Origin: Candidatus Omnitrophota bacterium
GTDB taxonomy: Bacteria; Omnitrophota; Gorgyraeia; Velamenicoccales; Velamenicoccaceae
Direction: 5' to 3'
Length of the DNA stretch: 64,000 nt
Assembly (NCBI GenBank): GCA_020052645.1
Contig: JAGVOQ010000011.1
Coordinates: forward strand, 40,890-104,889
In this document: positions 30,660-63,606 of the stretch, piece after piece
Layout of the letters: the number at the start of each line of letters is the position of its first letter
Numbering within the stretch: the first letter of the stretch is position 1
Notes under the pieces: model-generated
What the model saw: the letters and a program-made list of their open reading frames with translations, nothing else
What the model was told of the DNA's origin: nothing
Database searches by the model: none
Translations under genes and position numbers: made by a program

Positions 30660-30827
30660 ACGTAACCCCCTTTGTTTTGCTTCGCTTAAGGTCTCACCCT
30701 TTCAAAACAAACCTCGACGCTTTCTTAAAACTTTTTGAAGTTTTTAAGAGTTTAAGCGGCGGGTTATTCGCTAAATCATCTAAACGCCTTTTCAGAGATT
30801 AAACAAGAAATACTTCGCTTCCTTTTT

Positions 30828-35752: not shown

Positions 35753-35767
35753 GTTTGAACTTTTTCT

Positions 35768-36805: not shown

Positions 36806-36824
36806 TTTTTAAATTTATTTTTTG

Positions 36825-38741: not shown

Positions 38742-38750
38742 CTTTTTTTC

Positions 38751-41468
38751 CTAAACATCGCCAAAAACAATCCTGCCTGTAAAATATGAATGTTCGCCCA
38801 TATCTAAAACAGCGGCATTTTTTGTGAGATACTGAAGAATCCTACCTCGAAAATAAAGATCCGAATTAACGATATTTAAACAACCGTTTCTATTATTTGC
38901 ATCTAAAGAAAAAACAATCGGCGGCAAGGCACCATCGACTCCTGACGCAACCCCTATAGAACGATCGCACTTTTCTTTAGCCCCATCTTCTGTCCAAATC
39001 AAATCCCAATCATCATCGATATCGCCTCGAAAATCAGGAAAAGCCCCTTCTGCCCCCAGCCCTTGCCATTTAAGATATTCTTCAGAAAGCATGAGATTCG
39101 TTTGCAGGCGTTCAAAAGCAAGCCCTTGATCCAAAATCAGACGTACATTGAAAAAAACCCTCATTTGTTCATCCAGAGAAATTTCCCAAATCTGGCTCAT
39201 GGGCAACTCTCTCCATCGCCCTCGGGCTCTTATGAAGCGCGCGTTATTCTCTAAAATTTCCCATTGAGCCATTAGCAGGGAATCATGCCAGCGCCCTTTA
39301 TAGCGCAAAGACGTATAAAAAGCGTGTTTCTTGGTCAGCTCTTTTCCTTTCTTAAACAAACGCACGCATCCATTATCAAAAACTATTTTTTTATTCTCGT
39401 CTAAAACGATTTCCGCCCGCATCTTTAGAAAAACAATCGGTTCATTTTTAAATGCGACACTTAATTCAAAACAAGGGGTGAAGCCACGGGAAAATTTCAT
39501 CCTTCCTTCAGGTTCAACGCGTTCTATTTTTAACTCACGGGCGCTGTACGAAAAATCAGAATTACCGATTTTCGCAAAATTATTCAATACTTTAGAAAAT
39601 TTTATTTCACAAGAAGGCAAAGAATCACCCTGTGCGCTCAAACCCACAACGCCGCCGCAAATACAACGTTGAACCACATCAAAAAAAACTTCGCCAAAAT
39701 CATTCAAGAATTCCCCGCGATCAACATCCGTAAACCAATAACCATATTGCGACAAACATCTGAACGTCATGCCCTGACTTTCTATATCCACTTCCTGACT
39801 TAAATCCAGGCCCACCTTTACCCTGAATTCGGATTCATTTAAAATTTCTATCTCCCACACCTGGGAAAGAGGCAAGTTGTGCCAAAACCCCCGAGCAATA
39901 AGCTTCGTTGCGCTTTCTTTTTTAAACTCCCATTGGGCGTACGTCGAAGAATACCATCGTCCGTTGGCAAAGAAAGAAACGCTCGCATGATCCCCCTTGG
40001 TAAGCGTTACCCCTTTACAAGAAACCATGAGGCGGCCGTTATCAAAAACACATTTTAAAGCTCCTTTTTCTAAAACAAATTCTTCCTGTATTTGGCGCAG
40101 AAATTTTTCAGGCTCAGGGACCGCGCAAAGAATTTTTCCGGAAAAAATATGCCGATGGACTATCCCCAAATCTTCGTTCTCGTTAAAAACAGTTGTCTTA
40201 AATTGCAAAAGACGACAATTCAAAAAATCATCGGAATTAAAGATCTGGGCATGGCAAAGGCCGGACTGCTGAAAGATCAAAGGCGCGAGATTTGTATCGG
40301 AAGTTGTCTCTGCCTTAACTCCTAACGCCTTTCTCTCAATATTGTTACCCAGAAAAGCCTGCCAATTCCAACTGGCCTGCCCTTGAGATAAAAATTCACC
40401 CTGTTCTAAAGTCGTCATCCAATGCGTAAAGCCGCGGGTAAGCATAATATTGGAGCATCCCTCTTGAACAACGAAATTCCTTGGTCCCTCAACCTCAACC
40501 TGCCAATCAATACAACTGTTTCTTAAACTAATTTTCCAGACTTGAGTCAATGCAGGGCTTGAAAGTTTCCCTCTTAAGACCCACAGGCCTTCCCCGCCGC
40601 TTGCAACCTCCCAATCGAATTCCTGAGAGCTGACCCATTTATTATCCACGCGCAAAACCATGTGCGCGCCTAAACCCGGGGTCAAAAGCACGTCGCAAAA
40701 ATTTATGAAGAGCCGGCCGTTATTAAAAATAATTTTTAAAGGCCCCTCTTGCAATCCGGCGATCCCTTTCTTTTCTCCGATATTCTGCAAAAACGCCGAA
40801 ACAACCAAATCCACCGGCCCATCCTTGATCAGCCGGCCCTCTTTAAAAAGAAGGACGCGACAACACAATTGCCGCAATAAATTAATATCATGCGTCACAA
40901 AAAGAATCGTCTTTCCCTGTTCTTTCAGCTCAAAAATCTTCTGAACACATTTTTTCTGAAAATATTCATCACCGACAGCCAAGGTATCATCAATCAAAAG
41001 GATGTCCGGATCTACATGTACGGCGATGGCGAAAGCCAGACGCACAAACATGCCTTGCGAATAACATTTAACCGGGGCATGGATAAATTTACCTAAAGCC
41101 GCGAAACGTATAATGGCGTCACGACGCTCTTCAATCTGTTTTTTATTTAATCCAAAAAGGCCGCCGCTTAAAAATATATTTTCCTCGCCAGTCAATTCAG
41201 GTTGAAATCCGGCCCCAAGCTCTAACAACCCTGAAACACGGCCTTCAATACCAACCTGGCCCCGGTCAGATTTTAGAAGACCAGCTATTAATTTCAAAAC
41301 CGTCGATTTACCGGCGCCGTTTTCTCCGATAATACCCAGGGTTTCGCCTTTTTCAACGCTAAAACTAACGTCTTTCAAAGCCCAAAAGCTCTCCCAGGCG
41401 GTCCTTCGCCTCTGGAAGAACTTAATCCTATACATTTCCCAAACGTTTTTGAATTGAACAACAGGCAT
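38751..41468 (-). CDS. Wzt/TagH-type polysaccharide ABC exporter ATPase with a roughly 660-aa triple-repeat C-terminal extension
   Basis: GENGAGKST, YSQGMFVRLAFA, ILLIDDTLAVGD and VTHD in the first 230 aa. Three homologous modules of about 215 aa follow. Confidence 0.85.
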   Translation of the reverse strand: MPVVQFKNVWEMYRIKFFQRRRTAWESFWALKDVSFSVEKGETLGIIGENGAGKSTVLKLIAGLLKSDRGQVGIEGRVSGLLELGAGFQPELTGEENIFLSGGLFGLNKKQIEERRDAIIRFAALGKFIHAPVKCYSQGMFVRLAFAIAVHVDPDILLIDDTLAVGDEYFQKKCVQKIFELKEQGKTILFVTHDINLLRQLCCRVLLFKEGRLIKDGPVDLVVSAFLQNIGEKKGIAGLQEGPLKIIFNNGRLFINFCDVLLTPGLGAHMVLRVDNKWVSSQEFDWEVASGGEGLWVLRGKLSSPALTQVWKISLRNSCIDWQVEVEGPRNFVVQEGCSNIMLTRGFTHWMTTLEQGEFLSQGQASWNWQAFLGNNIERKALGVKAETTSDTNLAPLIFQQSGLCHAQIFNSDDFLNCRLLQFKTTVFNENEDLGIVHRHIFSGKILCAVPEPEKFLRQIQEEFVLEKGALKCVFDNGRLMVSCKGVTLTKGDHASVSFFANGRWYSSTYAQWEFKKESATKLIARGFWHNLPLSQVWEIEILNESEFRVKVGLDLSQEVDIESQGMTFRCLSQYGYWFTDVDRGEFLNDFGEVFFDVVQRCICGGVVGLSAQGDSLPSCEIKFSKVLNNFAKIGNSDFSYSARELKIERVEPEGRMKFSRGFTPCFELSVAFKNEPIVFLKMRAEIVLDENKKIVFDNGCVRLFKKGKELTKKHAFYTSLRYKGRWHDSLLMAQWEILENNARFIRARGRWRELPMSQIWEISLDEQMRVFFNVRLILDQGLAFERLQTNLMLSEEYLKWQGLGAEGAFPDFRGDIDDDWDLIWTEDGAKEKCDRSIGVASGVDGALPPIVFSLDANNRNGCLNIVNSDLYFRGRILQYLTKNAAVLDMGEHSYFTGRIVFGDV

Positions 41469-41469
41469 C

Positions 41470-42285
41470 TTAGATTCGTTTTAACAGATTGGATTCAAAA
41501 CGCGCAAAAATCAATAATCCCAACATTAGGGTTAACCCGGACAAAAGGAAAAGAAGAAAAAAACTAAAAGCAGACGGAATTTGGCCATAAAAAACAAGGG
41601 CCCTAAAATCAATCACGTAGAGTGTGACTGGATTAAGAGCAACAATCCAGCGGAATTTCACAGGAAGCATATCCAGCGAATAAAAAACCGGAGTGATCCA
41701 AAACCAACACATAAAAATGACGCCCAGAAGATGGCCCAGATCGCGGACAAAAACATTTAGAACAGACAGCGCAAGCCCCGCGCCCCAGGTCAAAAACAAA
41801 AATAAAAGAAGAACGATCAAAATAAAAGGAAGGAAAAAAATGATCTTCGGATGTTGGATTATAAACAAAGGAAGAACGACAATCCACCCAATCATAAAAT
41901 TTAAAAAATTGGCCAGAATAGAAGACAAGGGCAAAATTTCTTTAGGAATGTTGAACTGACGTAAAATAGCGGCTTGGTTTAAGAATACCGAAGAGGCCTC
42001 TGTCAACGCGCAGGAAAAAAACATCCATAAAAAAATCCCGGAAAGGACAAAAAGAGAATAGTGACCGACACTCATTCTCGAAAAACCGCTGAATACACAT
42101 GTAATAGCCAGAGCGACCAACAACGGATTTACGATCGCCCAAAATACCCCCAAAAATGAACCTGCGTATTTAGCCTTAAGCTGCTTGAACGCCAAATCCC
42201 ACAACGCATGACCGTACAAAAATATATCCTCAACTCGTTTCTTAAAATCCATTCGCACCCCAAGAGGTTTTTTTATGCTTTCCAT
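41470..42285 (-). CDS. ABC-2 type (Wzm/TagG-like) exporter permease
   Basis: LKAKYAGSFLGVFWAIVNPLL N-terminal motif and 6 TM segments. Sits 1 nt from the ATPase gene. Confidence 0.85.
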   Translation of the reverse strand: MESIKKPLGVRMDFKKRVEDIFLYGHALWDLAFKQLKAKYAGSFLGVFWAIVNPLLVALAITCVFSGFSRMSVGHYSLFVLSGIFLWMFFSCALTEASSVFLNQAAILRQFNIPKEILPLSSILANFLNFMIGWIVVLPLFIIQHPKIIFFLPFILIVLLLFLFLTWGAGLALSVLNVFVRDLGHLLGVIFMCWFWITPVFYSLDMLPVKFRWIVALNPVTLYVIDFRALVFYGQIPSAFSFFLLFLLSGLTLMLGLLIFARFESNLLKRI

Positions 42286-50970: not shown

Positions 50971-51056
50971 GCCGAAGTGGCGGAATGGCATACGCGGCGG
51001 TCTCAAAAACCGTTAGGTTCACGCCTGTGTGGGTTCGACTCCCACCTTCGGCACCA
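50971..51056 (+). tRNA. tRNA-Leu (CAA)
   Basis: GCCGAAGTGGCGGAATGGCATACGCGGCGGTCTCAAAAACCGTTAGGTTCACGCCTGTGTGGGTTCGACTCCCACCTTCGGCACCA, with a long variable arm. Confidence 0.88.
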
Positions 51057-51065
51057 AATTAAAAA

Positions 51066-51092
51066 CCTCGACGCTCCATAGTCGGGGTTTTT
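51066..51092 (+). terminator. intrinsic terminator after tRNA-Leu
   Basis: CCTCGAC-gctccata-GTCGGGG-TTTTT. Confidence 0.7.
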
Positions 51093-51332
51093 AATTTGGT
51101 CTGTTGTGGGAGTCGAAGCCGACCCGAGCGCCGAAGGATGAAGCGAGGGCGGCCGGCGACGGAGGAGACTCGACGAATGTCGAGTCGGGGGAGGAGGACT
51201 CCCACTTTGCTATCTAAAGTTATGCAACCGGGTCACCTCACATCTCGCTGTCCGTGCTAAACATTCAGACTCATTTGTCCAAGGGCGTCCTTCAGCATAG
51301 ATTTGCCCTCTGAATTATTTTTTCTTCAAATT

Positions 51333-51405
51333 ACTCCGAAGCCTGCGCAGAAAATTTCCAGCCGGTTTGCCCTGGCGGAAATTTACAAGTGTATAGGCAA
51401 GGAGC
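51333..51405 (+). repeat. E-family element, intact copy
   Basis: ACTCCGAAGCctgcGCAGAAAATTTCCagccggtttgccctggcGGAAATTTACAAGtgtatagGCAAGGAGC. Confidence 0.7.
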
Positions 51406-51413
51406 AAAACCAC

Positions 51414-51460
51414 TCCCAACGATCTATAGTTGGGGTTTTTAATTTGGTTTACCGTGGGAA
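51414..51460 (+). repeat. second copy of the tRNA-Leu terminator and downstream sequence
   Basis: TCCCAAC-gatctata-GTTGGGG-TTTTTAATTTGGTtTacCGTGGGAaTC, compared with 51066-51113. The stem is kept by a G-C to A-T compensatory change. Confidence 0.7.
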
Positions 51461-51714
51461 TCACTTGCTTCGCGGGATTTCGCTAAATATTTACGCTAAT
51501 GTCCTCAAGAAGCCGACCCCTGCCTGCTGGCAGGCAGACGAACACCGAAGGATAAAACACGGAGCAATAATAGAAAAACCCCCATAGATACAACAAACAG
51601 CTTAAAAAATATCTTCATTTTCGATACTTTTTGCTTGCTTAATGTTAAGGTTCTTTATATAATTGAGGCAATACTATCGACGAGGAGAAATTTCTCGCCA
51701 AGAAGACTAAAAAA

Positions 51715-52089
51715 ATGAAAAAAATATCTCTCTTATTTCTCTGCGCACTTTTATTTGGCTGCACAACTATTTCTCGTGTTTCTCCTCGGCTTAATCTGGG
51801 AATGACAAAAGCGGAAGTCTTAAAAAAATGCGGGCCTCCTCGTCAGGCAGGAGCCATGAAAGACAATGATCTTCAGATCATAGAAACTTTCAAATACACG
51901 GAACTTCCTTTTTTCCATTCCGCCTCAACCGAACCCATCACGACTTATGTCTATTTCTTGGAAGGTAATGTTGTTTACTACGGCCCCAGCCCGCGTTTGC
52001 CGAAAGAATTAATCTCTGAACACAAAAAACAAGACCGAAGAAATCAAAACTCACCCACTCTAACCGCTCCTGCGCGCGTTAATCGCTAA
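51715..52089 (+). CDS. SmpA/OmlA (BamE-like) lipoprotein
   Basis: Lipobox LLFGC and LGMTKAEVLKKCGPP. Confidence 0.5.
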   Translation: MKKISLLFLCALLFGCTTISRVSPRLNLGMTKAEVLKKCGPPRQAGAMKDNDLQIIETFKYTELPFFHSASTEPITTYVYFLEGNVVYYGPSPRLPKELISEHKKQDRRNQNSPTLTAPARVNR

Positions 52090-52113
52090 AGACCCTTTAA
52101 TAAACACCTAAAA

Positions 52114-53472
52114 TCAAACCGGCGGCGGAAAACCATGATAAACGCGATCCATGGATATAATGGCCAGGTCGTTAAGGCGGGACTTCACCACGAGGTCCCA
52201 AAACCTCTGATATTCAATCAAAGCAAATACGATAAGACATAAAACTAAAAAAATCATCGCCAAATAAAAAAAACAATTCCTAAGCTTAGCCCTTAAAAAA
52301 AGAATAACCTCCCAGACACCGCATGCGCTCAATAAATAAAAAGGCCCGCTAACAACACCCATGTACCTCATATTTTTTAAATTCGGCATATAAGTAATGA
52401 TGCCAATGTAAGCGGTCAAAATAAAAATCATGAAAAAAACAATATCCTGATTTTTATGAAAAAATAGAACTTTGGGTTTAATTTTATTAAATAGCGCCAC
52501 AACAATAGCCAAGGCACATAAAACCATACTACAAGGCATTAACAACCAAAAACCTTTAATGATTTGAAACCATGGGCCGGAGCAAGTCCTAACGCCATAA
52601 GGCGAACCATCCATGATTCCCCGAATATGGGAGATAGCTTCCCACACAATAGGCGCCCCGCCGACTACCCAAAAAAGAATTCCTGCGCTTATCGCCATTC
52701 CAAGGATGCTGAAAATTACCAACAAACCTGCCCTTTTAAATTCTTTTTCCCTGAAAATCAAAAATCCCAATACATACAGAAGACACAGCCCATAAATGAT
52801 AACAGCTGATTCTTTAATGAGCAGACCATACGCACCGGCAACGATAAAAAGAACCATCCAAATCGTCTTGCGAAAATCTTTTATTATCCTGCAGCTTAAA
52901 TACAAGAGCAACATTCCCAAGCACCCCATCATGGCATCTTGCCAAAATCTTTGCGCCAACGCAATATCTAAGGGAGAAACCGCCGCAAGAAAAAGAGCCA
53001 ACGCAGCAATCGGCCAATTAAAAAAACGGATGGCAAACATCATCATAAGCAATAATGACACGATAGTAAAAAAACAAGAAACAGCAACCCCACCCTGGAG
53101 ACTTGGTACTCTTGTTATTTTCATAACCAGTGCAATAGGAACAAGATAACCTATTCTATAAGGAGGTGGATAATACCAGCTTTCTTTATTGGCATTAAAA
53201 TTTCGCAGCAAAAGCCTTATGCCAGAAATTTCTTTTTCCATTATAGTCGTCGTAAAATAAGCATATATACCTTCATCAGCGCTTCGGCCATCCAACTGAT
53301 GCATGCTCTCAAGCCGAAAGACGCTCCCAGTAAAAAAAGCCTGGAACAATATTATAGACACAAAAAAATTCCTAATCCTGCGACCAGACCCTCCCTCTAT
53401 TTTTGCCACAAACACTTCCAGCCGAGCGTCTTCTTTCTTTTTTAGGTCTTTAATAACTTGCTCATCCTTCAC
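52114..53472 (-). CDS. GT-C fold (ArnT/PMT_2-like) membrane glycosyltransferase
   Basis: About 11 TM segments and an acidic first-loop motif, SADEGIYAY. Confidence 0.6.
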   Translation of the reverse strand: MKDEQVIKDLKKKEDARLEVFVAKIEGGSGRRIRNFFVSIILFQAFFTGSVFRLESMHQLDGRSADEGIYAYFTTTIMEKEISGIRLLLRNFNANKESWYYPPPYRIGYLVPIALVMKITRVPSLQGGVAVSCFFTIVSLLLMMMFAIRFFNWPIAALALFLAAVSPLDIALAQRFWQDAMMGCLGMLLLYLSCRIIKDFRKTIWMVLFIVAGAYGLLIKESAVIIYGLCLLYVLGFLIFREKEFKRAGLLVIFSILGMAISAGILFWVVGGAPIVWEAISHIRGIMDGSPYGVRTCSGPWFQIIKGFWLLMPCSMVLCALAIVVALFNKIKPKVLFFHKNQDIVFFMIFILTAYIGIITYMPNLKNMRYMGVVSGPFYLLSACGVWEVILFLRAKLRNCFFYLAMIFLVLCLIVFALIEYQRFWDLVVKSRLNDLAIISMDRVYHGFPPPV

Positions 53473-53493
53473 CGCAATCTCCTTTTTAAAAGT

Positions 53494-55104
53494 CTAAAGA
53501 ACATCAAAAATCTCAATAACCATGGCATTCCTTTCAAACCTTTTTAACAAAACTAAATGATTTTTTAAAAATATCTCTTCCTCGGGCTGCCCCTCATCTT
53601 TCAGCGCCTGCTTATCATAAACAAAAATATCAAATTTTTCCTTTACATTAACCACGCGCAACGGTTTTTTAACATAGCCTAACGCAGGGTATCTCAAAAC
53701 AGCCATAAACGGCCACGAGGTTAAAATACGCTTATCCGAAAAATTTAATTCGACATAACGCGCGGCATCTTGAGAAATTTTCACCGCATCGATATATTCG
53801 TTATTATAAACAACTGAATCTAGGGCCCATCCATTAACATCATAGCGCATCAATGAAAATAGTACGGTTAAATAAAATACAACTTTAGGCAAAAGCAATT
53901 TATTTTCATCAATAAATCTTACCAAGCTTAGAACCCCCAAAAAATAAAAAAATGGGTAAAAAGGAATCAGCCAACGCGCGCTAAAACTTTTAACAAGAGC
54001 AAAAGAAAAGATCACAACGAAAAGAAATAAAATAAAAAAAATCCTTAAAAAACCGAGCGGCTTGCGCCTATGGACGTCGGCAATAAAATGATAAAAAATT
54101 ATAATTGTCAGGAATACATTCCCAAACAAAAAGAAATGCTCGAATATGCGCCCCACCCTTAAAACATACAATGGGCCTGATAGCTGCAATCCATTGTAAC
54201 GCTCAAAAATTTCTGAATATAGCAAAATACCGCTTGAGTAATAATGGCCGATAAACCAAGCAACATAAACAATAAAAGGTAAACAAAAAAAGAAACAATC
54301 CCTGCTTTTTAATTTTAATCTATCTTTTTCATAAAATTTCAATATGATAAAATTCAAAAAGAGCAAGACACCTATTGATACAATACCGGTGGCTTTCGTT
54401 AAAACCGCAAAAGATGAAAAAAGACCGAAAAGAAGATACTTTTTGCGCAACAACGAATATGTTGAAGCCAAAAAAAACGCTGCCAGAGGAACATCCAAGA
54501 CGACAGTCCCGAAATGAGTAAATACTGTCGGGGAATAAAAAAATAACACCGCCGCAAAAAAACCGATCCTGGCATCTTTGAAAAAATCCCTGCCGATCAG
54601 ATAGGTATAAAAAAGGGGCATCCAAGAAAAAACTAGAGCTGCCAGATGAGAAACAATGATTTTCTGGCCAAAAACATTCCATAAAAACGCCAGAAATTCG
54701 AAATAAAAGAAAGGGTGCCCTGTATCAAAAGGAGCAGCCGAGGAAAAAGGCCAGAGGTGATTCTTAAAAATAACATCCGCATGTCCAATGGTCCATTGTT
54801 CATCCCAGTAAAAAGGAAGGCGCAAAACATTGGCCCTGTTTATTAAAACCATTGCGAGAATAAAAAAAGCAACAAAGACAGGACGATCCAACAATCCATC
54901 TTTCTTTATATCTTTTACAGGGAAGAGATAGACAAAACAAAACGACAGGGCAGCGCAGGAAAAAAACAGAATTATTTTGTAATGAAGAGGATACGCCTCA
55001 TGAAAATTATATAAATAATAAAAAGTCAGGCCGCCGGTTAGAACAAAGAACAGTGCTACGGCCGAAAAGAGCTTACTTGCCCTCGCATTCATTCGCGTCA
55101 GCAT
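53494..55104 (-). CDS. GT-C fold (ArnT/PMT_2-like) membrane glycosyltransferase
   Basis: Polytopic protein with the first-loop motif LPFYWDEQW and a C-terminal soluble domain. Confidence 0.6.
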   Translation of the reverse strand: MLTRMNARASKLFSAVALFFVLTGGLTFYYLYNFHEAYPLHYKIILFFSCAALSFCFVYLFPVKDIKKDGLLDRPVFVAFFILAMVLINRANVLRLPFYWDEQWTIGHADVIFKNHLWPFSSAAPFDTGHPFFYFEFLAFLWNVFGQKIIVSHLAALVFSWMPLFYTYLIGRDFFKDARIGFFAAVLFFYSPTVFTHFGTVVLDVPLAAFFLASTYSLLRKKYLLFGLFSSFAVLTKATGIVSIGVLLFLNFIILKFYEKDRLKLKSRDCFFFCLPFIVYVAWFIGHYYSSGILLYSEIFERYNGLQLSGPLYVLRVGRIFEHFFLFGNVFLTIIIFYHFIADVHRRKPLGFLRIFFILFLFVVIFSFALVKSFSARWLIPFYPFFYFLGVLSLVRFIDENKLLLPKVVFYLTVLFSLMRYDVNGWALDSVVYNNEYIDAVKISQDAARYVELNFSDKRILTSWPFMAVLRYPALGYVKKPLRVVNVKEKFDIFVYDKQALKDEGQPEEEIFLKNHLVLLKRFERNAMVIEIFDVL

Positions 55105-55136
55105 TCGTTTAAAGCGCCTTCTTTAGACCCTTCTTG

Positions 55137-55205
55137 AGTGAAGTTCCTTAGGACTTTAAGTCCTAAGGCTTCCTCCTTTAGCAGAAAATGCACAACACCA
55201 TTCAT
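55137..55205. repeat. 69-bp dispersed repeat, copy B
   Basis: Same sequence as 25685-25753 except T/C at 25741/55193. The flanks are related but diverged. Confidence 0.9.
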
Positions 55206-55257
55206 TCTTTAGGGCTAAAAGCCTTAAAAGGATTTCTGCTAAAGGATTAAGCCTAGT

Positions 55258-56892
55258 TCATCGACGGATCAAAACTATTAATAAAAACGTATAGAAGAAA
55301 TAAAATAAAAAAATGTTCTTTTCTTTTGCCCCTGATCGTTGAATATAGAAAAAATTTAATGCCCCGTATAAAAATGAAAACGGCAAAAGAAAAAAGGGAA
55401 TCCGTACAACCACAGTTAAGCGAAGAACTAAAGGTATAATCGCATAGCTGACAAAAACACAGAAAGCAATCAAAGCTCTCGCCTTTCTTGCACCCAAAAG
55501 GACAGGCAAAGAATAAACATGAGCGCATTTATCTCCTTCGATATCCTTTAGGTCTTTAATAGATGAGGATAAAAAGAATACAATGAATACTAAAAACCAA
55601 ATCGGCGCATACGCAAAATTCAACGAGCTTTCAGCCTGTAAAGACAGCTGGCCTATTAAAAATGCCATTAAAGCTTCACTGCCGATAATCAACGATGAGG
55701 TCAGAAAAAATTTTTTTATTCTAAAAGGGGGCAAAGAATATACAGCGTAGAACGCGACGAAGATCATCGTCATCATAAAGCACGCGTCTCCAACCCAGAG
55801 AGAAAACAAAAAAGCAAAAGCCAGATAAACAAAACCGACTTTGGAATACTCCTCTTTTCCTATCACCTGAGTCACCAAGGGCCTGTCTGTGTTGGAAACC
55901 TTGTCGCACTCCACATCAACAACATCATTCGTCACAACAGAAAACTGGAAAGCAAAAAATATAGACGCCAATATCCCAAAAACTTTTAAAAAGAGAAAAT
56001 AATCATTATTTCCTGTATTCAGCAAATAGAATAAAAGGCCCAAGACAGCCAGTAGCATATAGTGTAAGGAGCGCGTCCATCTTAAATTCCTGACTAAAGC
56101 CAGCCATTTATTTCTGTCATATCGATAATACCAGACCACAACCGTGACAAAAGCCACAAAAAGCTCTACAATCATTAAATTCTGGTCCAAAAACACTCCC
56201 TCTGAAACAACCTCCGATCCTCTTGACCCTAGCCCTAAAAGATTTCTTAAGAAATGGACAGCTGTATGCAGGAAAGGCGTAACAAAAACACAGGTGTTAA
56301 TAAAAATTCCCGGGATCGCGATGTAAAAAAAACAGGTAGCAAATATGAAAAAGGCCCCGCCTAAGGATAAAAAAACTTTGCGTCTTTTTAAAAAAATATA
56401 AACAAATGATCCTAAAGTAGCTAAGGCAATCTCCAGGCGTAACGTCAACGGGAAGTCAGCGATTCTGAAAAAAGGGTTAAAGAAATTGATAAAATTTAAG
56501 CCTACATTTTCTGTGATATAAAAATATTCCATTTCCTTTTTAGTCAATAATATAAAGATAAAGTCAACAATGGCGGGGAAAAGGATCAAAGGGAAAAAGT
56601 ATATCGCAAGTTTAGAAACTTTGACAATATCAGTTTGCGTAAAAAAATGCAGGAAAACAATAATGGTTAAAAGAAGTGATAAAAAAAACAATGGAAAGTG
56701 TACGAGATAAAATGGGTGGATAAAAGGAAATTCTTTCCCGGTCATCACTGTTTCAAAAGCACAGCGTAAAACAACGATACATAAACTCGCAAAAATCCAC
56801 TGGCCAAAGGTCAAAGGGCTTTCCTCGCAAAATCGGATCATTTCTTTAATTTTATTCATAAGCATCCTTTTTTGATGAATCCTGTGTTCCAA
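55258..56892 (-). CDS. UbiA-family prenyltransferase fused to an N-terminal polytopic domain
   Basis: C-terminal half carries VVTNDVVDVECD (NDxxDxxxD) and DLKDIEGD (DxxDxxxD). About 290 aa of extra TM domain lie upstream. Several start codons are possible (56892, 56865, 56859). Confidence 0.7.
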   Translation of the reverse strand: MEHRIHQKRMLMNKIKEMIRFCEESPLTFGQWIFASLCIVVLRCAFETVMTGKEFPFIHPFYLVHFPLFFLSLLLTIIVFLHFFTQTDIVKVSKLAIYFFPLILFPAIVDFIFILLTKKEMEYFYITENVGLNFINFFNPFFRIADFPLTLRLEIALATLGSFVYIFLKRRKVFLSLGGAFFIFATCFFYIAIPGIFINTCVFVTPFLHTAVHFLRNLLGLGSRGSEVVSEGVFLDQNLMIVELFVAFVTVVVWYYRYDRNKWLALVRNLRWTRSLHYMLLAVLGLLFYLLNTGNNDYFLFLKVFGILASIFFAFQFSVVTNDVVDVECDKVSNTDRPLVTQVIGKEEYSKVGFVYLAFAFLFSLWVGDACFMMTMIFVAFYAVYSLPPFRIKKFFLTSSLIIGSEALMAFLIGQLSLQAESSLNFAYAPIWFLVFIVFFLSSSIKDLKDIEGDKCAHVYSLPVLLGARKARALIAFCVFVSYAIIPLVLRLTVVVRIPFFLLPFSFLYGALNFFYIQRSGAKEKNIFLFYFFYTFLLIVLIRR

Positions 56893-59047
56893 AGACAGTG
56901 TTTAATTTCTTCTGGATACTTTCATCATGAAAACCCAATTGATCAGCCTCTTTATAGCACTGTGCGGCCAGTTCATATCTCTTCTTTTTTAAATACAGCA
57001 GGGTTAAATTTTTATAACTGACTGCCGACGGCTTAATCGCCAGCGCCTTTTTAAATGACAAAACAGCTTCCTCATCATATCCTAAGCGAGCATGCACAAC
57101 GCCCAGATTATTATAGTTTTCACCATCTAGGGGATCAATAATAGCAGCTTTTTTAAGCAGGCTTAAAGCTTCTTCGTTTCGTCCTCTAGATAAAAAAACC
57201 GTACCTAAATGGCGATAGCCGATCCCAAGATCCGGGTTGATTTCAATCACCCTCTTAAAGCACTGTCCAGCAGCCTCCATTTGATTTCGGTTATAGTAAA
57301 GCATTCCAAGGACAGCAAAGGCTTCAGCGAAATCGGGCTTAGTCTCAACAGCCTTTTGACAAGCCTCCAAAGCGCGATCAAAATGGCCCTGGCGGTCATA
57401 AGCGACACAAAGGTTCATGTACGCGTTAGGCTTGGCAGGCTCGCTTGCGACAGCTCGCTTTAAAAATTCAATCGCGCGGTCCTGTTCCCCCACCTCACTG
57501 GCAAGGCTTCCGAGATTATTAAGAGCAAAATAATGACGCGGCTGGATACTCAGGGTTTTTTTAAAAGAAAGGATTGCCCTTTCTCGATCTCCTCGATCCT
57601 GAAGTGCCTTGCCTAAATTATTATAAATCGTGGTTGAATTTTTTGCCCCTGGATTATTCTTAACCGCGTCACTCCATAACGTCACGCTGTCTTTCCAAAC
57701 CTTACATCTCTCATACGTCAAAAAAACACCCCAGGCTATTAAACATGACAAAAACGCCAAAAAGACAAATTGCATCTTGCGACTCCTAAGAGTCCGCTCT
57801 CTGGTCAGCAACGCAATAAAACCTGAGCTTGCAATATAGAAGAAACCTATAGAAGCAATATAGACATACCGATCCGCAACGATAATAGAACCCGCAGGAA
57901 CAAATTGAAGAACCGGCAATAAAATAACAACATAAAACAAGACACCAAAAACTAAGTTTTTGCGGGTCTTAAAAGCAAAAAAAAGCAACAACCCACAGGC
58001 AAATACAAGCACCGGAGTCAAAAAATAAATAAGGGGTAAATCGCCTAAGTTCAATCCTGAATAAGGATATAAATTGCATAAACCAAAAGGGAAAAGAAGC
58101 TTATAAATATAAAAAACAAGCACAAAGTTAGCGATAATGAACGAAGAAAAAAAATTAAGAAACTCACTATGACGAATCGCGTGGCTTTCAAAAGCGGCGA
58201 AGAGGGCCATATACGCAAAAACAAAAGCTACTGTAAAAAAAGGAATCTTGTCCATCCAAAACTCTTTAGTTTTTTTACGACTGAAGAGGTAATCCAGAAG
58301 AAACAAAACAAGAGGCAATGTCATGGCCATAGCTTTTGACAAAAGAGACGCTAAAAACAACACTAAAGAAATAAAGTAAGCGCCATTCAGGCGACCTTTA
58401 CGTAAATAATATAAATAACTAATCAAGGCGCCTAAAAAAAACAAAGAATACAAAACATCCTTGCGCTCGCTGATCCATGCAACAGACTCCACGTGCATCG
58501 GATGAATGCCAAATAACAATGCCGTCAATAAAGCGACAGGGGCATTGGCGCTTATCATCATAACAAACCATGCCACGAGAGCCGTATTGACAATATGCAG
58601 ACAAAGATTTGTCAGATGATAGCCAAAAGGATCTTGTTTAAAAAAATGATACGTAGAAGCAAAAGAAAGAATGGTCAAGGGCTGGTAATGACCGATAAAA
58701 AAAGAGGTGGAAATTTTCTTTAAGTGAGCGAGAGAAAAAGATTTTATAGCAGAGTTGTTCTTAACATAAGCCTCATCATCCCAATTGACAAAGCCATTTT
58801 TAAGAGAAGGACTGAAAGCCAAAAACGTTATTATTAAAATAAGTGCAAGCGCACCATAAAATTTTATACCCGGCGACCTAAAACCGCGCCCTTTAAAAGA
58901 CGCACCTGCCTTCCGACCCTCGGCTTCGCTGCGAGGCGAGCAGACAGAGATGTTTATGGCCGCTTGAACATTCCGCTTAAAAAAGAACCACAGACTTTTG
59001 GCCTGGGTAGGCTCCATTTTTTTTTGAAATTCATGCATTTTGCTCAA
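56852..59047 (-). CDS. TMTC-like GT-C glycosyltransferase with a C-terminal TPR array
   Basis: VNWDDEAYV first-loop motif and about 11 TM segments. About 8 TPR repeats follow (YNNLGKALQDRGD..., ALNNLGSLAS..., YMNLCVAY...). Confidence 0.7.
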   Translation of the reverse strand: MSKMHEFQKKMEPTQAKSLWFFFKRNVQAAINISVCSPRSEAEGRKAGASFKGRGFRSPGIKFYGALALILIITFLAFSPSLKNGFVNWDDEAYVKNNSAIKSFSLAHLKKISTSFFIGHYQPLTILSFASTYHFFKQDPFGYHLTNLCLHIVNTALVAWFVMMISANAPVALLTALLFGIHPMHVESVAWISERKDVLYSLFFLGALISYLYYLRKGRLNGAYFISLVLFLASLLSKAMAMTLPLVLFLLDYLFSRKKTKEFWMDKIPFFTVAFVFAYMALFAAFESHAIRHSEFLNFFSSFIIANFVLVFYIYKLLFPFGLCNLYPYSGLNLGDLPLIYFLTPVLVFACGLLLFFAFKTRKNLVFGVLFYVVILLPVLQFVPAGSIIVADRYVYIASIGFFYIASSGFIALLTRERTLRSRKMQFVFLAFLSCLIAWGVFLTYERCKVWKDSVTLWSDAVKNNPGAKNSTTIYNNLGKALQDRGDRERAILSFKKTLSIQPRHYFALNNLGSLASEVGEQDRAIEFLKRAVASEPAKPNAYMNLCVAYDRQGHFDRALEACQKAVETKPDFAEAFAVLGMLYYNRNQMEAAGQCFKRVIEINPDLGIGYRHLGTVFLSRGRNEEALSLLKKAAIIDPLDGENYNNLGVVHARLGYDEEAVLSFKKALAIKPSAVSYKNLTLLYLKKKRYELAAQCYKEADQLGFHDESIQKKLNTVFGTQDSSKKDAYE

Positions 59048-59081
59048 GCAATAATACGGCGCAAAAGTTAACTATCTATAT

Positions 59082-60347
59082 TTATTTCCAGCCAATTTTT
59101 TTATAATAATCCGGCAATTCTTTTATAGAAGCATATTGATCAATCATCTGACAGGCTTCTTCAAAAGAGAGAGGCTTGATAGGCGCACCTTCAGGAAATA
59201 ACGATTGTAACTGAGAGATTTTTTCTTTTAAGGGACATTTCCTGAAAGGGCTCTTAAATTGAGCGGTGAGTTTTTTCCATTCGGTTTCAAAAGGCTCTTG
59301 GCGTATATTTCCAAAAGCCACCTGAAAAAAATCGCAAGGAAACAAATTCCCGAAAGCATCGATATACATGCAACCCTTGCCTCCGCTGCACCCCATATTC
59401 TGTTCGCGCTCAGCAAAAGGGATCGACATCCAGTTAGGCCAATCTTTTCTATCTTGAGCCTTAGAACAAAAATCATCCAAAATTTTATTTTCTGCGTCAC
59501 CAAGAAAAAAATCCTCCTTTTTCCATGTCCAGTTTCCCGACGGCAAAGGCTCCGTAATTCGAATTTCCTGAACTCCTAATCCTTTGGCAAATTTCCAATA
59601 ATCAGTTAAGAACTTGTCATTAACAACATCTTTGCGAACCGTTAGATGAATAGCCGTATAAAATCGATTTTTTAAAGACACCTCAATAGCGTCCAGGGCC
59701 GTACGAAAGGCAAGCTCAGACCTCCTGAAGAGGTTGTGTTCTTTTGCATCGTAATGGTCCAAACTAATAGAAACATAAGAAAGCCCTGCGTCCTTTAAAC
59801 GCGCGGCCCTATCTTGATGAAGCCCATCTCCTGACGTCAATAGAATGCTGGTCGCCCTTTCGTCAATACTTTTGACGATTTGCTCTAGATCAGGCCTCAG
59901 CAACGGCTCACCACCAGTTAAAGCAATAAGACAAATACCAAAATCCTGAAGTTCTTTTACGAGCTCGACCAACCTTTGTGTTGAAAGCTCTTCTCCGACC
60001 CGATAGGTTCGACTGCAATGCGAACAATTAAAATGGCATTTATGAGTCACAGCCAAATTCAATTGATAAGGACGGGCTTGGCCATTAAAATCTAGAATTT
60101 GTTTTTGTTTATAACGCTCAAAGGCAGGACTCGGAAAAGGCGGCAAGAATGTTGACAAGACATAACGACCATCTAATTTCGTTAACTTAGCCTTCTGGTT
60201 TTGACGAAATAGAAACCACAGGATAGACAAGGACGGTTTTTTTAGCCTTTTTTCCTTTATCCATTCATTCAATCTATTGCATGATTTTCTATCTAAAAGG
60301 TGTTTTAATAGAATCAAATCTCTTTTTATCCCGACAATTTGTTCCAT
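59082..60347 (-). CDS. radical SAM enzyme with a twitch-like C-terminal Cys cluster
   Basis: AVTHKCHFNCSHCS, LTGGEPLLRPDL and GCSGGKGCMYIDAFGNLFPC. Confidence 0.8.
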   Translation of the reverse strand: MEQIVGIKRDLILLKHLLDRKSCNRLNEWIKEKRLKKPSLSILWFLFRQNQKAKLTKLDGRYVLSTFLPPFPSPAFERYKQKQILDFNGQARPYQLNLAVTHKCHFNCSHCSRTYRVGEELSTQRLVELVKELQDFGICLIALTGGEPLLRPDLEQIVKSIDERATSILLTSGDGLHQDRAARLKDAGLSYVSISLDHYDAKEHNLFRRSELAFRTALDAIEVSLKNRFYTAIHLTVRKDVVNDKFLTDYWKFAKGLGVQEIRITEPLPSGNWTWKKEDFFLGDAENKILDDFCSKAQDRKDWPNWMSIPFAEREQNMGCSGGKGCMYIDAFGNLFPCDFFQVAFGNIRQEPFETEWKKLTAQFKSPFRKCPLKEKISQLQSLFPEGAPIKPLSFEEACQMIDQYASIKELPDYYKKIGWK

Positions 60348-60367
60348 AGCACTCCTTTTAAAAAAAA

Positions 60368-61255
60368 TTAACCAACTAAAACTTTTAAAGCCTTCAGATA
60401 TTTCTCAGATGTCTTCTTAATAATCTCTTCGGAAACTTCCGGCGCAGGAGGCGTCTTATCCCATTTTAAACTCTCCAGATAATCACGCATAAACTGTTTA
60501 TCAAAACTTGGGCAAGACGCGCCGACACGATAACTCTCCTTAGGCCAGAACCTCGATGAATCCGGGGTCAGCGCTTCATCAATCAAAATCAGCTTATTCT
60601 GAAAATAGCCGAATTCAAACTTTGTGTCAGCGATAATAATGCCCTTGGTCTCGGCATATCGGCTCGCCTGAACATAAAGCGCCAGGCTTTTCTCTTTTAT
60701 CTCGCAAAATGCGTCCTCTCCGATAAGTTTTTTAGCCTCGGCATCGTTGATATTCAAATCATGTCCGGATTCAGCTTTGGTCGATGGCGTAAAAATAGGC
60801 TGAGGTAATTTTTCTGATTCCTTTAAACCTTTGGGCAAAGCAACACCACAGACAGAAGCCTTATCCCTATATTCCTTCCACCCCGACCCTGATAAATATC
60901 CGCGTACAATACATTCAATAGGAAGACTCTTAGCTTTTTTAACAAGCATGGATCTGCCTGCAAGAATTTTTTTATAAGGCTTTAGGCTTTCAGGATATTT
61001 ATCTACGTCAGCCGTCACCAAATGATTGACAACGATATTTTTAAGATACTCGAACCAAAAAAGAGAAATCGCTGTAAGAACACGCCCCTTTTCAGGGATA
61101 CCGCATCCTAAAACAACGTCAAAACATGAAATACGATCAGTGGCTACAATCAAGAGATTATCGCCCAAATCGTAGACATCGCGGACCTTGCCTTTTTTCA
61201 ATAACTTTATTTCCGGAAATTCCGTCGTTAGAAGAATACTATCTCTTTTTTCCAT
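60368..61255 (-). CDS. purC: SAICAR synthetase
   Basis: GKVRDVYD, ATDRISCFD, LIADTKFEFG and IDEALTPDSSRFW. Confidence 0.92.
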   Translation of the reverse strand: MEKRDSILLTTEFPEIKLLKKGKVRDVYDLGDNLLIVATDRISCFDVVLGCGIPEKGRVLTAISLFWFEYLKNIVVNHLVTADVDKYPESLKPYKKILAGRSMLVKKAKSLPIECIVRGYLSGSGWKEYRDKASVCGVALPKGLKESEKLPQPIFTPSTKAESGHDLNINDAEAKKLIGEDAFCEIKEKSLALYVQASRYAETKGIIIADTKFEFGYFQNKLILIDEALTPDSSRFWPKESYRVGASCPSFDKQFMRDYLESLKWDKTPPAPEVSEEIIKKTSEKYLKALKVLVG

Positions 61256-61292
61256 TTTATTTTTTTCCTATAGACTATCGATTATCGTCTAA

Positions 61293-63101
61293 TTATTCCT
61301 GAAGTCTTCTATTCTGCTCTTCCCACTCTTTCCAAATCTCCTTAGGAAGCTTATCATCGAAAGTCTTTAAAAACTCCTTCTGAGATTCCATTTCCTGAAG
61401 CCACTCAAATTTATCAATTTCAAGAAGCTTGGCCAAATTCTCCTTAGATAAATGCAGGCCGGTCATATCTAAGCTATCAGGAGTAGGCACATAGCCAATG
61501 GGGGTTTTTTGGGCGCCTGTGGATTTATTGCATCGATCTAAAATCCATTCTAGGATCCTTAAATTTTCTCCATAACCAGGCCATAAAAACTTCCCCTGCT
61601 CATCCAAACGAAACCAATTAACATGAAAAATTTTCGGGACTTTTTCAAGCCGTTGCCCAATAGTCAGCCAGTGTTTAAAGTAATCCCCCATGTGATATCC
61701 ACAAAATGGCAGCATCGCCATAGGGTCACGACGCACCTCGCCTTGTTCACCAAACTGAGCCGCCGTTCGCTCTGAAGCCATGGTTGCTCCGACATAAACA
61801 CCATGTTGCCAACTAAAAGACTCATAGACGAGCGGCGCCACATGAGCCCTGCGACCACCAAAAACAATCGCTGAAATAGGAACACCATGATGATGCTCAA
61901 GTCTAAAAGAAATAGACGGGCACTGCGCCGCAGGAGTTGTAAAACGACTATTGGCATGCGCCGCCTTGATGCTATTCCCTTTTTCGTCTTTTAAGCCCGG
62001 TTTCCAAGGCCTTCCCTGCCAATCCATCCCTTCGCTTGGGGCCAGCTCATCACTATTCTCCCACCACACAGTAAAATCTTTTTTCAGAAGGACATTAGTA
62101 AAAATTGTGTTTTTCTTAATGGTGGCAACGGCATTGGGATTTGTTTTAGAATTAGTCCCCGGGGCGACACCAAAAAAACCGCTTTCCGGATTAATAGCCC
62201 ATAAACCTCCGTCTGTATCGATCCTCATCCAGGCGATATCATCGCCAACAGTCCAAATTTTATAACCTTTAACTTTTAAACCCTCAGGCGGGATCAACAT
62301 GGCGAGGTTCGTCTTGCCGCAGGCGCTCGGAAAAGCCGCAGCGATATATTCAACGTGACCATTAGGTTCTTCAACGCCCATGATCAGCATATGTTCAGCC
62401 AGCCATCCTTCTTGACGCGCCAAAAAGCTTGCGATCCTTAAAGATAGGCACTTTTTCCCTAAAAGTACATTTCCGCCATATCCCGAATTAACGCTCCAAA
62501 TCGTATTGTCCTCGGGAAAATGTAAAATGAGTCTCTTGTTAATATCTAACTCAGCCTTTGAATGAAGGCACTTGGTAAATTCTCCTTCAGCGCCCAAATA
62601 ATCTAAAACTTTTTGTCCGACACGCGTCATGATGCGCATATTCAAGACAACATAAATACTGTCCGTAAGCTCAACCCCGACCTTGCTAAAAGGAGATCCT
62701 ATAGGCCCCATAGAAAAAGGAACAACATACATGGTCCTTCCTTTCATGGAACCTTTAAAATAAGCTCCCGCTTTCTTATAGCCTTCTTTAGGAGCCATCC
62801 AATTATTTGTGGGTCCGGCGTCTTTCTTATTTTTACTACAGATAAAGGTTAGATTCTCCGTGCGGGCAACATCATTAACAGCCGTGCGATGATAAAAACA
62901 ACCAGGGAGCTTCTCCTGATTCAAGCGGATGACCTCACCCGTTGCTACCGCCTCATCCTCGAGCCTCTTTTTTTCTTCCTCTGATCCCTCGATCCAAACA
63001 ATCCGTTCAGGTTTACACAAAGCCGCCATCCCAGACACCCAAAGCTTGAGCTTTATGTTAAGCGTCTTTGGTCCATCATCGGAAGAAAATAATGAAGCCA
63101 T
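61293..63101 (-). CDS. pckG: phosphoenolpyruvate carboxykinase (GTP)
   Basis: FPSACGKTNLAML, WMRID and the GYGGN... and NWF motifs of GTP-PEPCK. Confidence 0.92.
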   Translation of the reverse strand: MASLFSSDDGPKTLNIKLKLWVSGMAALCKPERIVWIEGSEEEKKRLEDEAVATGEVIRLNQEKLPGCFYHRTAVNDVARTENLTFICSKNKKDAGPTNNWMAPKEGYKKAGAYFKGSMKGRTMYVVPFSMGPIGSPFSKVGVELTDSIYVVLNMRIMTRVGQKVLDYLGAEGEFTKCLHSKAELDINKRLILHFPEDNTIWSVNSGYGGNVLLGKKCLSLRIASFLARQEGWLAEHMLIMGVEEPNGHVEYIAAAFPSACGKTNLAMLIPPEGLKVKGYKIWTVGDDIAWMRIDTDGGLWAINPESGFFGVAPGTNSKTNPNAVATIKKNTIFTNVLLKKDFTVWWENSDELAPSEGMDWQGRPWKPGLKDEKGNSIKAAHANSRFTTPAAQCPSISFRLEHHHGVPISAIVFGGRRAHVAPLVYESFSWQHGVYVGATMASERTAAQFGEQGEVRRDPMAMLPFCGYHMGDYFKHWLTIGQRLEKVPKIFHVNWFRLDEQGKFLWPGYGENLRILEWILDRCNKSTGAQKTPIGYVPTPDSLDMTGLHLSKENLAKLLEIDKFEWLQEMESQKEFLKTFDDKLPKEIWKEWEEQNRRLQE

Positions 63102-63132
63102 CTATATAGTCCTTCTATAGTGAGTCTTTTTG

Positions 63133-63606
63133 TTATTTTTTAATTTCCGCTGAAATCTCATTTACAGGAACCGACATGAGTGAATTTTTCAACACAGCCC
63201 ATGTCTTAGGCCCCACCTTACCATCTGTCCTAAGATTATTCTGGCTTTGAAATTCCTTAATCGCCATCTTCGTCTTTGGCCCTAGCTTCCCGTCAACAGA
63301 CCCTTCGTAAAGCCCGAGATTTTTCAGGGCTTTCTGGATCATAAAGATATCCGGGGTCTCAGAAGAGACGCTTTCCGATGAAACAGATGCCTCAACCAAA
63401 GGCGCGGCATCCTGATTAACAACAATCCCATTATTTGTATTCTGCGACGCAGGCATCTGATTGCCTTCAACCGATTGACTCAAAAGTTTATCCGCTCCAT
63501 TCAAACTTAAGGTCTCCGCATTCAGCACTTCTTCCGGCTTAGGGGCCTTTTTACACCCAACGATCGTCAATGATAAAACCGCCATTAGTACAATAAAAAT
63601 TCTCAC
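63133..63606 (-). CDS. lipoprotein with a C-terminal peptidoglycan-binding (PG_binding_1) domain
   Basis: Lipobox LTIVGC and IQKALKNLGLYEGSVDGKLGPKTKMAIKEFQ. Confidence 0.7.
   Translation of the reverse strand: MRIFIVLMAVLSLTIVGCKKAPKPEEVLNAETLSLNGADKLLSQSVEGNQMPASQNTNNGIVVNQDAAPLVEASVSSESVSSETPDIFMIQKALKNLGLYEGSVDGKLGPKTKMAIKEFQSQNNLRTDGKVGPKTWAVLKNSLMSVPVNEISAEIKK

Follow-up and report, generated by a model that had tools for sequence, protein, structure and literature searches.

A probable lineage-specific island of GT-C glycosyltransferase-like genes beside a conserved long-form UbiA gene in an Omnitrophota genome

Several systems are known in which membrane glycosyltransferases of the GT-C class use lipid-linked sugar donors. 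The mycobacterial route proceeds through DPPRS, Rv3807c, DprE and the Emb-Aft enzymes. GT-C enzymes of the ArnT, PMT or TMTC type classically use polyprenyl-phosphate hexose or 4-amino-4-deoxy-L-arabinose (Ara4N) donors made by GT2 enzymes. Three-component pentofuranose systems, in which a UbiA-family PPPRS is associated with a MATE flippase, a GT136 GT-C enzyme and optional epimerases, are widespread (Kelly et al. 2024, PMC11127046). The present study deals with five consecutive genes filling positions 52114-60347, on the minus strand, of a 64,000-nt stretch of DNA from Candidatus Omnitrophota bacterium, hereafter called the window, for which a set of 58 open reading frames (ORFs) was considered. 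In the direction of transcription, these genes encode a radical SAM/SPASM enzyme, a membrane protein carrying tetratricopeptide repeats (TPR), a long-form UbiA protein and two further membrane proteins of 536 and 452 amino acids (aa). The initial annotation of this locus had proposed a pathway producing its own prenyl-phosphate sugar donor. The analysis reported here leans instead, with a confidence a little above even, towards a fast-evolving, lineage-specific island of GT-C genes lying beside a conserved long UbiA gene, the radical SAM gene belonging with the genes upstream.

The UbiA gene was predicted at 55258-56892 as a 544-aa ORF starting with TTG, and its likely product is the 527-aa protein of the database record (P0001), with a start at 56841. 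This protein has about twice the usual length. It matches the Pfam UbiA family with 88.2 bits for a cut-off of 34.2, and the residues N305, D309, D313, D430, D433 and D437 of its two Asp-rich motifs, NDVVDVECD (55903-55929) and DLKDIEGD (55531-55554), are invariant in the family, in agreement with its annotation as a UbiA-family enzyme possessing both motifs. In the AlphaFold2 (AF2) model (pLDDT 89.2), seven N-terminal membrane helices precede a UbiA core of nine helices. The N-terminal extra domain spans about 250 aa, corresponding to residues 1-250 in the 527-aa product, and is conserved, with seven predicted membrane helices. Its residues R26, E30, F52 and Y106 are invariant, and D93, R135, E137 and K152 are at least 90% conserved; this figure for D93 and R135 refers to the 30-sequence alignment, both residues being invariant in the 12-sequence alignment of the domain. 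No Pfam or PDB match was obtained for this domain. A duplicated UbiA half and a small GT-C module were both considered and rejected, with hhalign probabilities below 1%, and a PAP2 phosphatase was ruled out from the alignment, which has no conserved histidines. Judged from these sequence comparisons, the N-terminal domain is novel and undescribed, and a literature search found no paper on this long form of UbiA. Full-length homologues of 518-557 aa are present in Omnitrophota, with 41-52% identity, and in the Candidate Phyla Radiation (CPR) and other lineages, with 25-30% identity; the names of the homologues assign the window itself to Omnitrophota. A scan of species-representative genomes detected 167 relatives of the long UbiA, and the best 80 (L001-L080) were kept. 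These best 80 of the 167 belong to Omnitrophota, Moraniibacteriota and other Parcubacteria, Saccharibacteria, Eisenbacteria, Cloacimonadota, Edwardsbacteria and a few archaeal bins.

The genomic context of the long UbiA was examined in these 80 loci, each extending up to 10 kb on either side of the gene, some being shortened by contig ends. Besides them, the cluster of the window was found in one relative only, seen as two contigs (L081 and L087) 99.9% identical to each other, with a UbiA 84% identical to that of the window. Between this relative and the window, the most similar orthologues are the GTP-dependent phosphoenolpyruvate carboxykinase (PEPCK, 94%) and PurC (85%), encoded upstream, then UbiA (84%) and the TPR-bearing GT-C protein (80%); identity decreases to 72% for the 536-aa protein, 71% for the radical SAM enzyme and 63%, the lowest value of the shared block, for the 452-aa protein. 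This ranking designates the GT-C genes as the fluid part of the locus and shows UbiA behaving like the housekeeping genes. The relative also possesses, after its 449-aa gene, two extra genes, for a 487-aa PMT_2 protein and another TPR-bearing GT-C protein (675 aa), a further sign that the GT-C island is fluid and the UbiA next to it stable. In 13 loci of the Omnitrophota type, where UbiA is 40-51% identical, the neighbors are unrelated (a Maf-M48 fusion, an HI0933-like flavoprotein, SmpB, SecDF and transporters). When hidden Markov models (HMMs) of the two GT-C families were run over all the ORFs of the 80 loci, no TPR-bearing GT-C was detected, and a PMT_2-type gene was found in a single locus (L007), at a distance of 4 kb. 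Single-sequence searches of the same 80 loci for a homologue of the radical SAM enzyme gave none beyond one marginal match (E 8e-4) in L004. The synteny that was to be expected in relatives if the five genes formed one pathway was thus observed in one close relative only.

A separate arrangement characterizes the CPR loci (L020, L025, L027-L029 and others), where the long UbiA gene stands alone on its strand. On one side are found genes for a TSP3-repeat protein, two unknown membrane proteins, PrgI and a VirB4/TraG-like ATPase, and on the other side genes for KsgA, a G5/DPBB protein and a ComM-like ATPase. This neighborhood was considered as a functional link to UbiA and was judged to be lineage synteny, being located on the opposite strand.

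The affiliation of the UbiA core was investigated by sequence and by fold. Compared with solved structures, the family profile scored 85 bits with DGGGPS, 75 with AfUbiA, 64 with the chlorophyll synthase ChlG, 39 with ApUbiA, 33 with DPPRS (8j8j) and 25 with UBIAD1. A Foldseek search with the model placed DPPRS at rank 14 (E 4.5e-3), behind 13 chains of DGGGPS, AfUbiA and ApUbiA; the target TM-scores for DGGGPS and AfUbiA were 0.59-0.75, and no chlorophyll synthase chain was present among the matches listed. Among the NCBIfam models, all 30 of the 30 family members match best PRK12884 (archaeal prenyltransferase), ChlG/BchG and GGGP-transferase, none of them near a curated cut-off: for the DGGGPS-type models, the scores are 43 bits for a cut-off of 296 (PRK12882) and 68.8 for a cut-off of 269 (PRK12884). 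No DPPRS model occurs among the 25 NCBIfam families matched by the largest numbers of family members. The long UbiA is nevertheless only 14-21% identical to all solved UbiA enzymes, and equally remote from each. As far as sequence and model indicate, the UbiA core would form a distinct branch, nearer to the O-prenylating enzymes than to the phosphoribosyltransferases, at an identity of about 20% that leaves its chemistry unsettled. The grouping with chlorophyll-type prenyltransferases counts against the analogy with DPPR synthesis on which the proposed donor pathway was based. Three outcomes had been put forward in the initial annotation as contrary to that pathway, and two were found, namely this grouping and the missing co-occurrence in relatives.

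The GT-C assignment of the three membrane proteins, made initially from acidic motifs of their first loop, withstood analysis by Pfam, hhalign and a profile match to ArnT. The evidence for it decreases from the 536-aa protein, where it is strong, through the TPR protein, where it is good, to the 452-aa protein, where it is weaker. The 536-aa protein (53494-55104) matches the Pfam family PMT with 25.5 bits for a cut-off of 22.7. A full-library search with this protein returned 1241 homologues; PMT_2 is matched by 33 of the 36 that were aligned, with a best E-value of 1.4e-19, and the family profile matches the solved ArnT structure 5ezm with an E-value of 1.6e-6 over profile positions 42-346. 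Residue D101 of its YWDE loop, part of the motif FYWDEQW (54793-54813), is invariant in the 36 homologues. From its sequence, this protein can securely be assigned to the PMT_2/ArnT-type GT-C enzymes. The 452-aa protein (52114-53472), with the first-loop motif SADEGIYAY (53257-53283), reaches 26.4 bits with PMT_2, barely over the cut-off of 26.1. Its comparison with the family of the 536-aa protein by hhalign gave 89% (E 2.3e-6) over 124 columns covering core helices, including the K-E motif (LIKESAV, 52801-52821). The HMM of the 536-aa family alone fails to reach the 452-aa protein at an E-value of 0.01, and single-sequence PDB searches with both proteins returned noise only. The 452-aa gene is close to being an orphan: a relative was detected by two metagenome scans in one organism only, at 63% identity. 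This protein is probably a PMT_2-type GT-C enzyme, the weakest of the three calls.

The third membrane protein (731 aa, 56852-59047) combines a polytopic membrane domain (residues 60-450 approximately) and seven TPR repeats (residues 472-703 approximately). The AF2 model (pLDDT 84) contains 11-13 membrane helices, followed by these seven repeats and a capping helix, and the first 55 residues or so of the ORF are poorly supported. The TMTC-like architecture attributed to this protein is therefore retained, with seven repeats in place of the eight or so counted previously. TPR families of Pfam match the 731-aa protein, and its 467-aa membrane part gave no Pfam match with an E-value of 1 or less, hence neither DUF1736 nor PMT_2 in the window protein itself; PMT_2 or PMT is matched by two of ten homologues. 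The family exceeds 6000 members, some of which are named protein O-mannosyltransferase by the Joint Genome Institute (JGI). Residues W89, D90 and D91 of the motif VNWDDEAYV (58763-58789) are invariant in 25 homologues. The acidic loop residues of this protein and of the 536-aa protein, being invariant across homologues, are not chance strings; all the motifs quoted in the initial annotation were located.

Direct structural comparison of the 731-aa protein was dominated by its repeats. PDB searches with the whole protein or the full alignment were swamped by TPR matches, all 50 Foldseek matches listed for the full model fall on the TPR part, and the profile of the membrane domain had no PDB match with an E-value of 10 or less. 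When a 120-sequence profile of the N-terminal domain was compared by hhalign with that of the 536-aa family, built from 147 sequences, the probability was 94.9% (E 4.1e-8) for 193 aligned columns, with NWDD of the TPR protein placed on YWDE, and SK(A) on TKE, of the 536-aa family. The human TMTC proteins are characterized by DD in the extracytoplasmic loop EL1 and by the motifs S/HKSYRP, RxD and ERxxY (PMC7801869), and the counterparts NWDD, HYQP, ERKD and DRYVY can be read in the alignment. There is thus good sequence support for a GT-C relative of TMTC-like architecture. The three proteins are GT-C relatives of the PMT_2/ArnT/TMTC type, with the graded confidence given above, and their genes belong, as ordinary members, to very large families. 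Their family membership suggests that all three would use polyprenyl-phosphate sugars, and periplasmic glycosylation from such donors, as first proposed, is a reasonable function for them.

The radical SAM gene (59082-60347, 421 aa) was the subject of a similar examination. Its product matches Radical_SAM with 74.7 bits and SPASM with 24.6 bits, both above the Pfam cut-offs. The residues C104, C108 and C111 constitute the CxxxCxxC motif (CHFNCSHC, 60015-60038; residues 104-111), behind an N-terminal extension of about 90 aa. The best NCBIfam models are AhbD (112 bits for a cut-off of 500) and also NirJ2, the scores being far under the cut-offs. Full-length homologues constitute a family of their own, distributed across Omnitrophota, Thermoplasmatota, WOR-3, Planctomycetota and Elusimicrobia. 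Fusion with a class I methyltransferase gives several of them a length of about 670-700 aa, and in five independent contexts (homologue loci L082-L085 and L088-L090 being considered) a UbiE-like methyltransferase gene is located directly upstream, with an overlap in four of them and a spacing of 79 bp in the fifth. No orthologue of this partner methyltransferase is present in the window. The context L084 holds genes for a CdsA-like protein, acyltransferases and an acyl-ACP-type ligase, a setting that suggests a lipid-related role for the family. The nearest homologue outside the lineage of the cluster is 49% identical and lies on the P0325 contig (ENA ERZ1426817). There, the order peptidoglycan-binding protein(s)-PEPCK-purC-radical SAM is the same as at 59082-63606 of the window, and the contig stops directly behind the radical SAM gene. 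The gene is, like those of the GT-C proteins, an ordinary member of a large family; radical SAM genes are moreover common in the window (6 of 58 ORFs). The identity of this enzyme was correctly recognized at the outset. Its role as the head of the cluster was not upheld, the co-directional run continuing upstream into purC and PEPCK, nor was its proposed action on a sugar donor, considering a family that pairs elsewhere with a methyltransferase absent here. The place of the gene is better explained by a link with the upstream block than by donor modification.

The identities of the genes, their homologies and the lack of conserved synteny are the observations from which the favored explanation is drawn. 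Three GT-C genes of the PMT_2/TMTC type would have accreted, in this Omnitrophota genome, around a conserved and slowly evolving long-form UbiA gene. With polyprenyl-phosphate sugars as donors, their products would glycosylate acceptors in the periplasm, probably proteins for the TPR-bearing enzyme, and the synthesis of these donors would most likely depend on genes located elsewhere in the genome. The long UbiA would be an intramembrane transferase of the prenyl-diphosphate type, closest to the O-prenylating DGGGPS, AfUbiA and chlorophyll synthase; in most genomes, it occurs without a GT-C neighbor. The radical SAM enzyme would belong with the PEPCK-purC block and with a methyltransferase partner absent here. 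On this scheme, we infer functional independence of the five genes, which would be neighbors, quite possibly co-transcribed, and not a dedicated pathway of donor synthesis.

Several facts weigh against this explanation. The only three GT-C genes in the 64-kb window are grouped around the UbiA gene, the stop of the TPR-bearing GT-C gene is only 10 bp from the UbiA start, and the gene order is identical in the close relative. The absence of conserved synteny is compatible with a functional coupling of recent origin. No GT2 donor synthase of the Dpm1/GtrB type was found in the window, whose two GT2 genes (30828-32126 and 36825-38741) are 16-21 kb away in another cluster and have no predicted membrane anchor. 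A C-terminal TPR domain is, furthermore, present in 16 of 82 long-UbiA ORFs from other phyla (about 20%), with lengths of 755-891 aa (loci L013, L015, L022, L030-L032, L039, L044, L045, L050, L054, L055, L058, L060, L073 and L076), as well as in P0036 and P0042. From the topology of the model and the cytoplasmic Asp motifs, this domain is predicted to be periplasmic, and the fused forms hint that the UbiA family works with periplasmic partners, as TPR-bearing GT-C enzymes do.

These last points bear on another possibility, which we consider doubtful, according to which the long UbiA is coupled to the TPR-bearing GT-C in some other way: it would prenylate or lipid-modify an envelope component or a carrier, and a periplasmic TPR module, fused or neighboring, would recruit the partner or substrate. 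The fused ORFs and the 10-bp spacing are in its favor, as is the presence directly upstream, in 15 TPR-fused loci, of genes for secreted proteins (an S8 subtilase with an FlgD_ig tail in eight, a small FlgD_ig/Por_Secre_tail protein in seven). This last synteny may, however, reflect close kinship of the genomes; TPR domains are generic, the coupling has no biochemical precedent, and no TPR-bearing GT-C accompanies the long UbiA in the 80 other loci. A donor-synthesis pathway, in which UbiA would make a lipid-linked donor (polyprenyl-phosphate phosphoribosyl or another sugar), the radical SAM enzyme would modify it and the GT-C enzymes would use it in the periplasm, as a variant of the synthase, flippase and GT-C systems, appears improbable. 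Tight packing, the order kept in the close relative and the equal remoteness of the long UbiA, whose chemistry homology does not fix, from all solved UbiA enzymes argue in its favor. In addition, 25 of 30 members of the UbiA family match weakly the NCBIfam model PRK08238, which we take to be a HAD-UbiA family, and UbiA-family PPPRS and GT-C systems do exist and are widespread (PMC11127046). Against it, DPPRS is a clearly weaker match than DGGGPS, AfUbiA and ChlG in sequence and than DGGGPS and AfUbiA in fold, and GT-C synteny is absent in 79 of 80 loci. Likewise, Pfam detects no phosphatase (HAD PRP domain or PAP2) in the five proteins or the N-terminal domain of UbiA, the cluster contains neither a flippase (MATE or similar) nor an epimerase, the radical SAM family partners a methyltransferase and not UbiA or GT-C proteins, and enzymes of the PMT_2/TMTC type classically draw on GT2-made donors. 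A cluster making its own donor would have widened the synthase-flippase-GT-C principle to include a new branch of UbiA in uncultured phyla; the evidence speaks for the contrary.

It could also be imagined that UbiA and the radical SAM enzyme act on membrane lipids, through a DGGGPS-like ether or isoprenoid lipid modified by the radical SAM enzyme, the GT-C genes being unrelated neighbors. DGGGP synthase does provide the best matches in sequence and fold, one radical SAM homologue resides among lipid genes (L084), and DGGGPS-like genes with no known role are widespread in bacteria (PMC6431249). Nevertheless, the 43 bits obtained are far under the DGGGPS equivalog cut-off of 296, neither GGGPS nor glycerol-1-phosphate (G1P) dehydrogenase occurs among the scanned window ORFs, and other genomes show no synteny of UbiA with the radical SAM gene, so that this scenario seems very improbable. 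More speculatively, the long UbiA might be an undescribed envelope enzyme with wide conservation in Omnitrophota, CPR/Patescibacteria, Eisenbacteria, Cloacimonadota and some DPANN bins, with a TPR module either fused or, as here, encoded by the adjoining gene. It would work with periplasm-facing partners, for example by supplying a new lipid-linked donor or a lipid-anchored acceptor for the TPR-bearing GT-C, and the window would illustrate the unfused form. This proposal is unlikely as it stands. Under the favored explanation of a GT-C island beside a stable UbiA gene, the point of interest is the long UbiA itself, present in many lineages with reduced genomes (CPR, Omnitrophota) and endowed with an unrecognized conserved membrane domain and sometimes with TPR repeats. 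Knowing its role might bring to light an envelope or lipid function common to organisms with a little-known membrane biochemistry.

The five co-directional genes first described at 52114-60347 are confirmed by the ORFs, and the run goes on with purC (60368-61255), directly upstream of the radical SAM gene, and PEPCK (61293-63101), upstream of purC, both on the minus strand and both identified from their translation and the Pfam label of the L081 orthologue. These two are context genes, outside any glycosylation function. From PEPCK to the 452-aa gene, through purC and the radical SAM, TPR-bearing GT-C, UbiA and 536-aa genes, the successive gaps are 37, 20, 34, 10, 153 and 21 bp. The widest gap of the cluster, 153 bp, precedes the 536-aa gene, the others being of 10-34 bp. 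The five genes may be co-transcribed; any such transcript would take in PEPCK and purC and therefore gives no evidence of a shared function. Co-direction says little by itself, since 51 of the 58 ORFs of the window are on the minus strand. The GC skew is negative in every 2-kb bin of the window, and the cluster region has a lower GC content (0.37-0.40) with a high AT skew, in keeping with the very hydrophobic proteins encoded there. In promoter and terminator scans, the counts of consensus promoters and terminators were not above those of shuffled sequence. Downstream, the cluster is followed by NfeD and Band_7. The spot at 51057-52113 contains two small ORFs only, tRNA-Leu(CAA) being located at 50971-51056. 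In the close relative, the two extra genes occupy positions 11498-15027 of L081, between the 449-aa gene and Band_7/NfeD, this being a variable spot by a tRNA gene.

The window contains a second, larger cluster, at 28958-42285 on the minus strand. It includes a gene for a B12-binding radical SAM protein (28958-30337), the GT2 gene at 30828-32126, three tandem radical SAM/SPASM genes (32119-35752) and, at 36825-38741, the second GT2 gene, a GT2-radical SAM fusion. A 345-aa ORF, a 905-aa ABC ATPase and an ABC-2 permease are also encoded there. The ensemble resembles a pathway for a glycan or glycolipid that would depend on an ABC transporter and be heavily tailored by radical SAM enzymes. Its radical SAM genes are 23-28% identical to the one at 59082-60347.

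In comparison with described systems, the cluster resembles the PPPRS/DPPRS systems in that a UbiA-family membrane enzyme is encoded beside GT-C enzymes. It differs from them in its UbiA, which is not PPPRS- or DPPRS-like and does not qualify as an orthologue of Rv3806c or C. youngae ORF15, in its GT-C enzymes, which appear to be of the PMT_2/TMTC type, and in the association of the two, which is not conserved in relatives. It also differs from the Gtr-type systems (GtrA/GtrB/GT-C), as the cluster has no GT2 synthase and no GtrA flippase. The radical SAM enzyme has in common with the radical SAM-SPASM enzymes of the AhbD/NirJ/PqqE type the CxxxCxxC motif, the Radical_SAM core and C-terminal auxiliary-cluster cysteines, and departs from them by its own family, its N-terminal extension of about 90 aa and its usual methyltransferase partner. 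The TPR protein shares with TMTC1-4 and the bacterial 'TPR + PMT_2' proteins the succession of a polytopic N-terminal domain and C-terminal TPR repeats, and with TMTC the invariant DD of the first extracytoplasmic loop and the equivalents of the motifs M2 (YQP), M3 (RKD) and M7 (DRYxY). Unlike TMTC, it does not conserve the glutamate of motif M4 (KE, here SKAMA), and the window protein has no Pfam match to DUF1736 or PMT_2; its profile is homologous to the PMT_2/ArnT-type family, ArnT being the structural prototype of the GT-C/PMT clan. As for the long UbiA, it shares the NDxxDxxxD and KDxxDxxGD motifs and the core of nine transmembrane helices with the DGGGPS, AfUbiA and chlorophyll synthase branch. 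It is distinguished from this branch by an identity of only about 20%, below every curated family cut-off, by its extra N-terminal membrane domain and, in some lineages, by its C-terminal TPR repeats.

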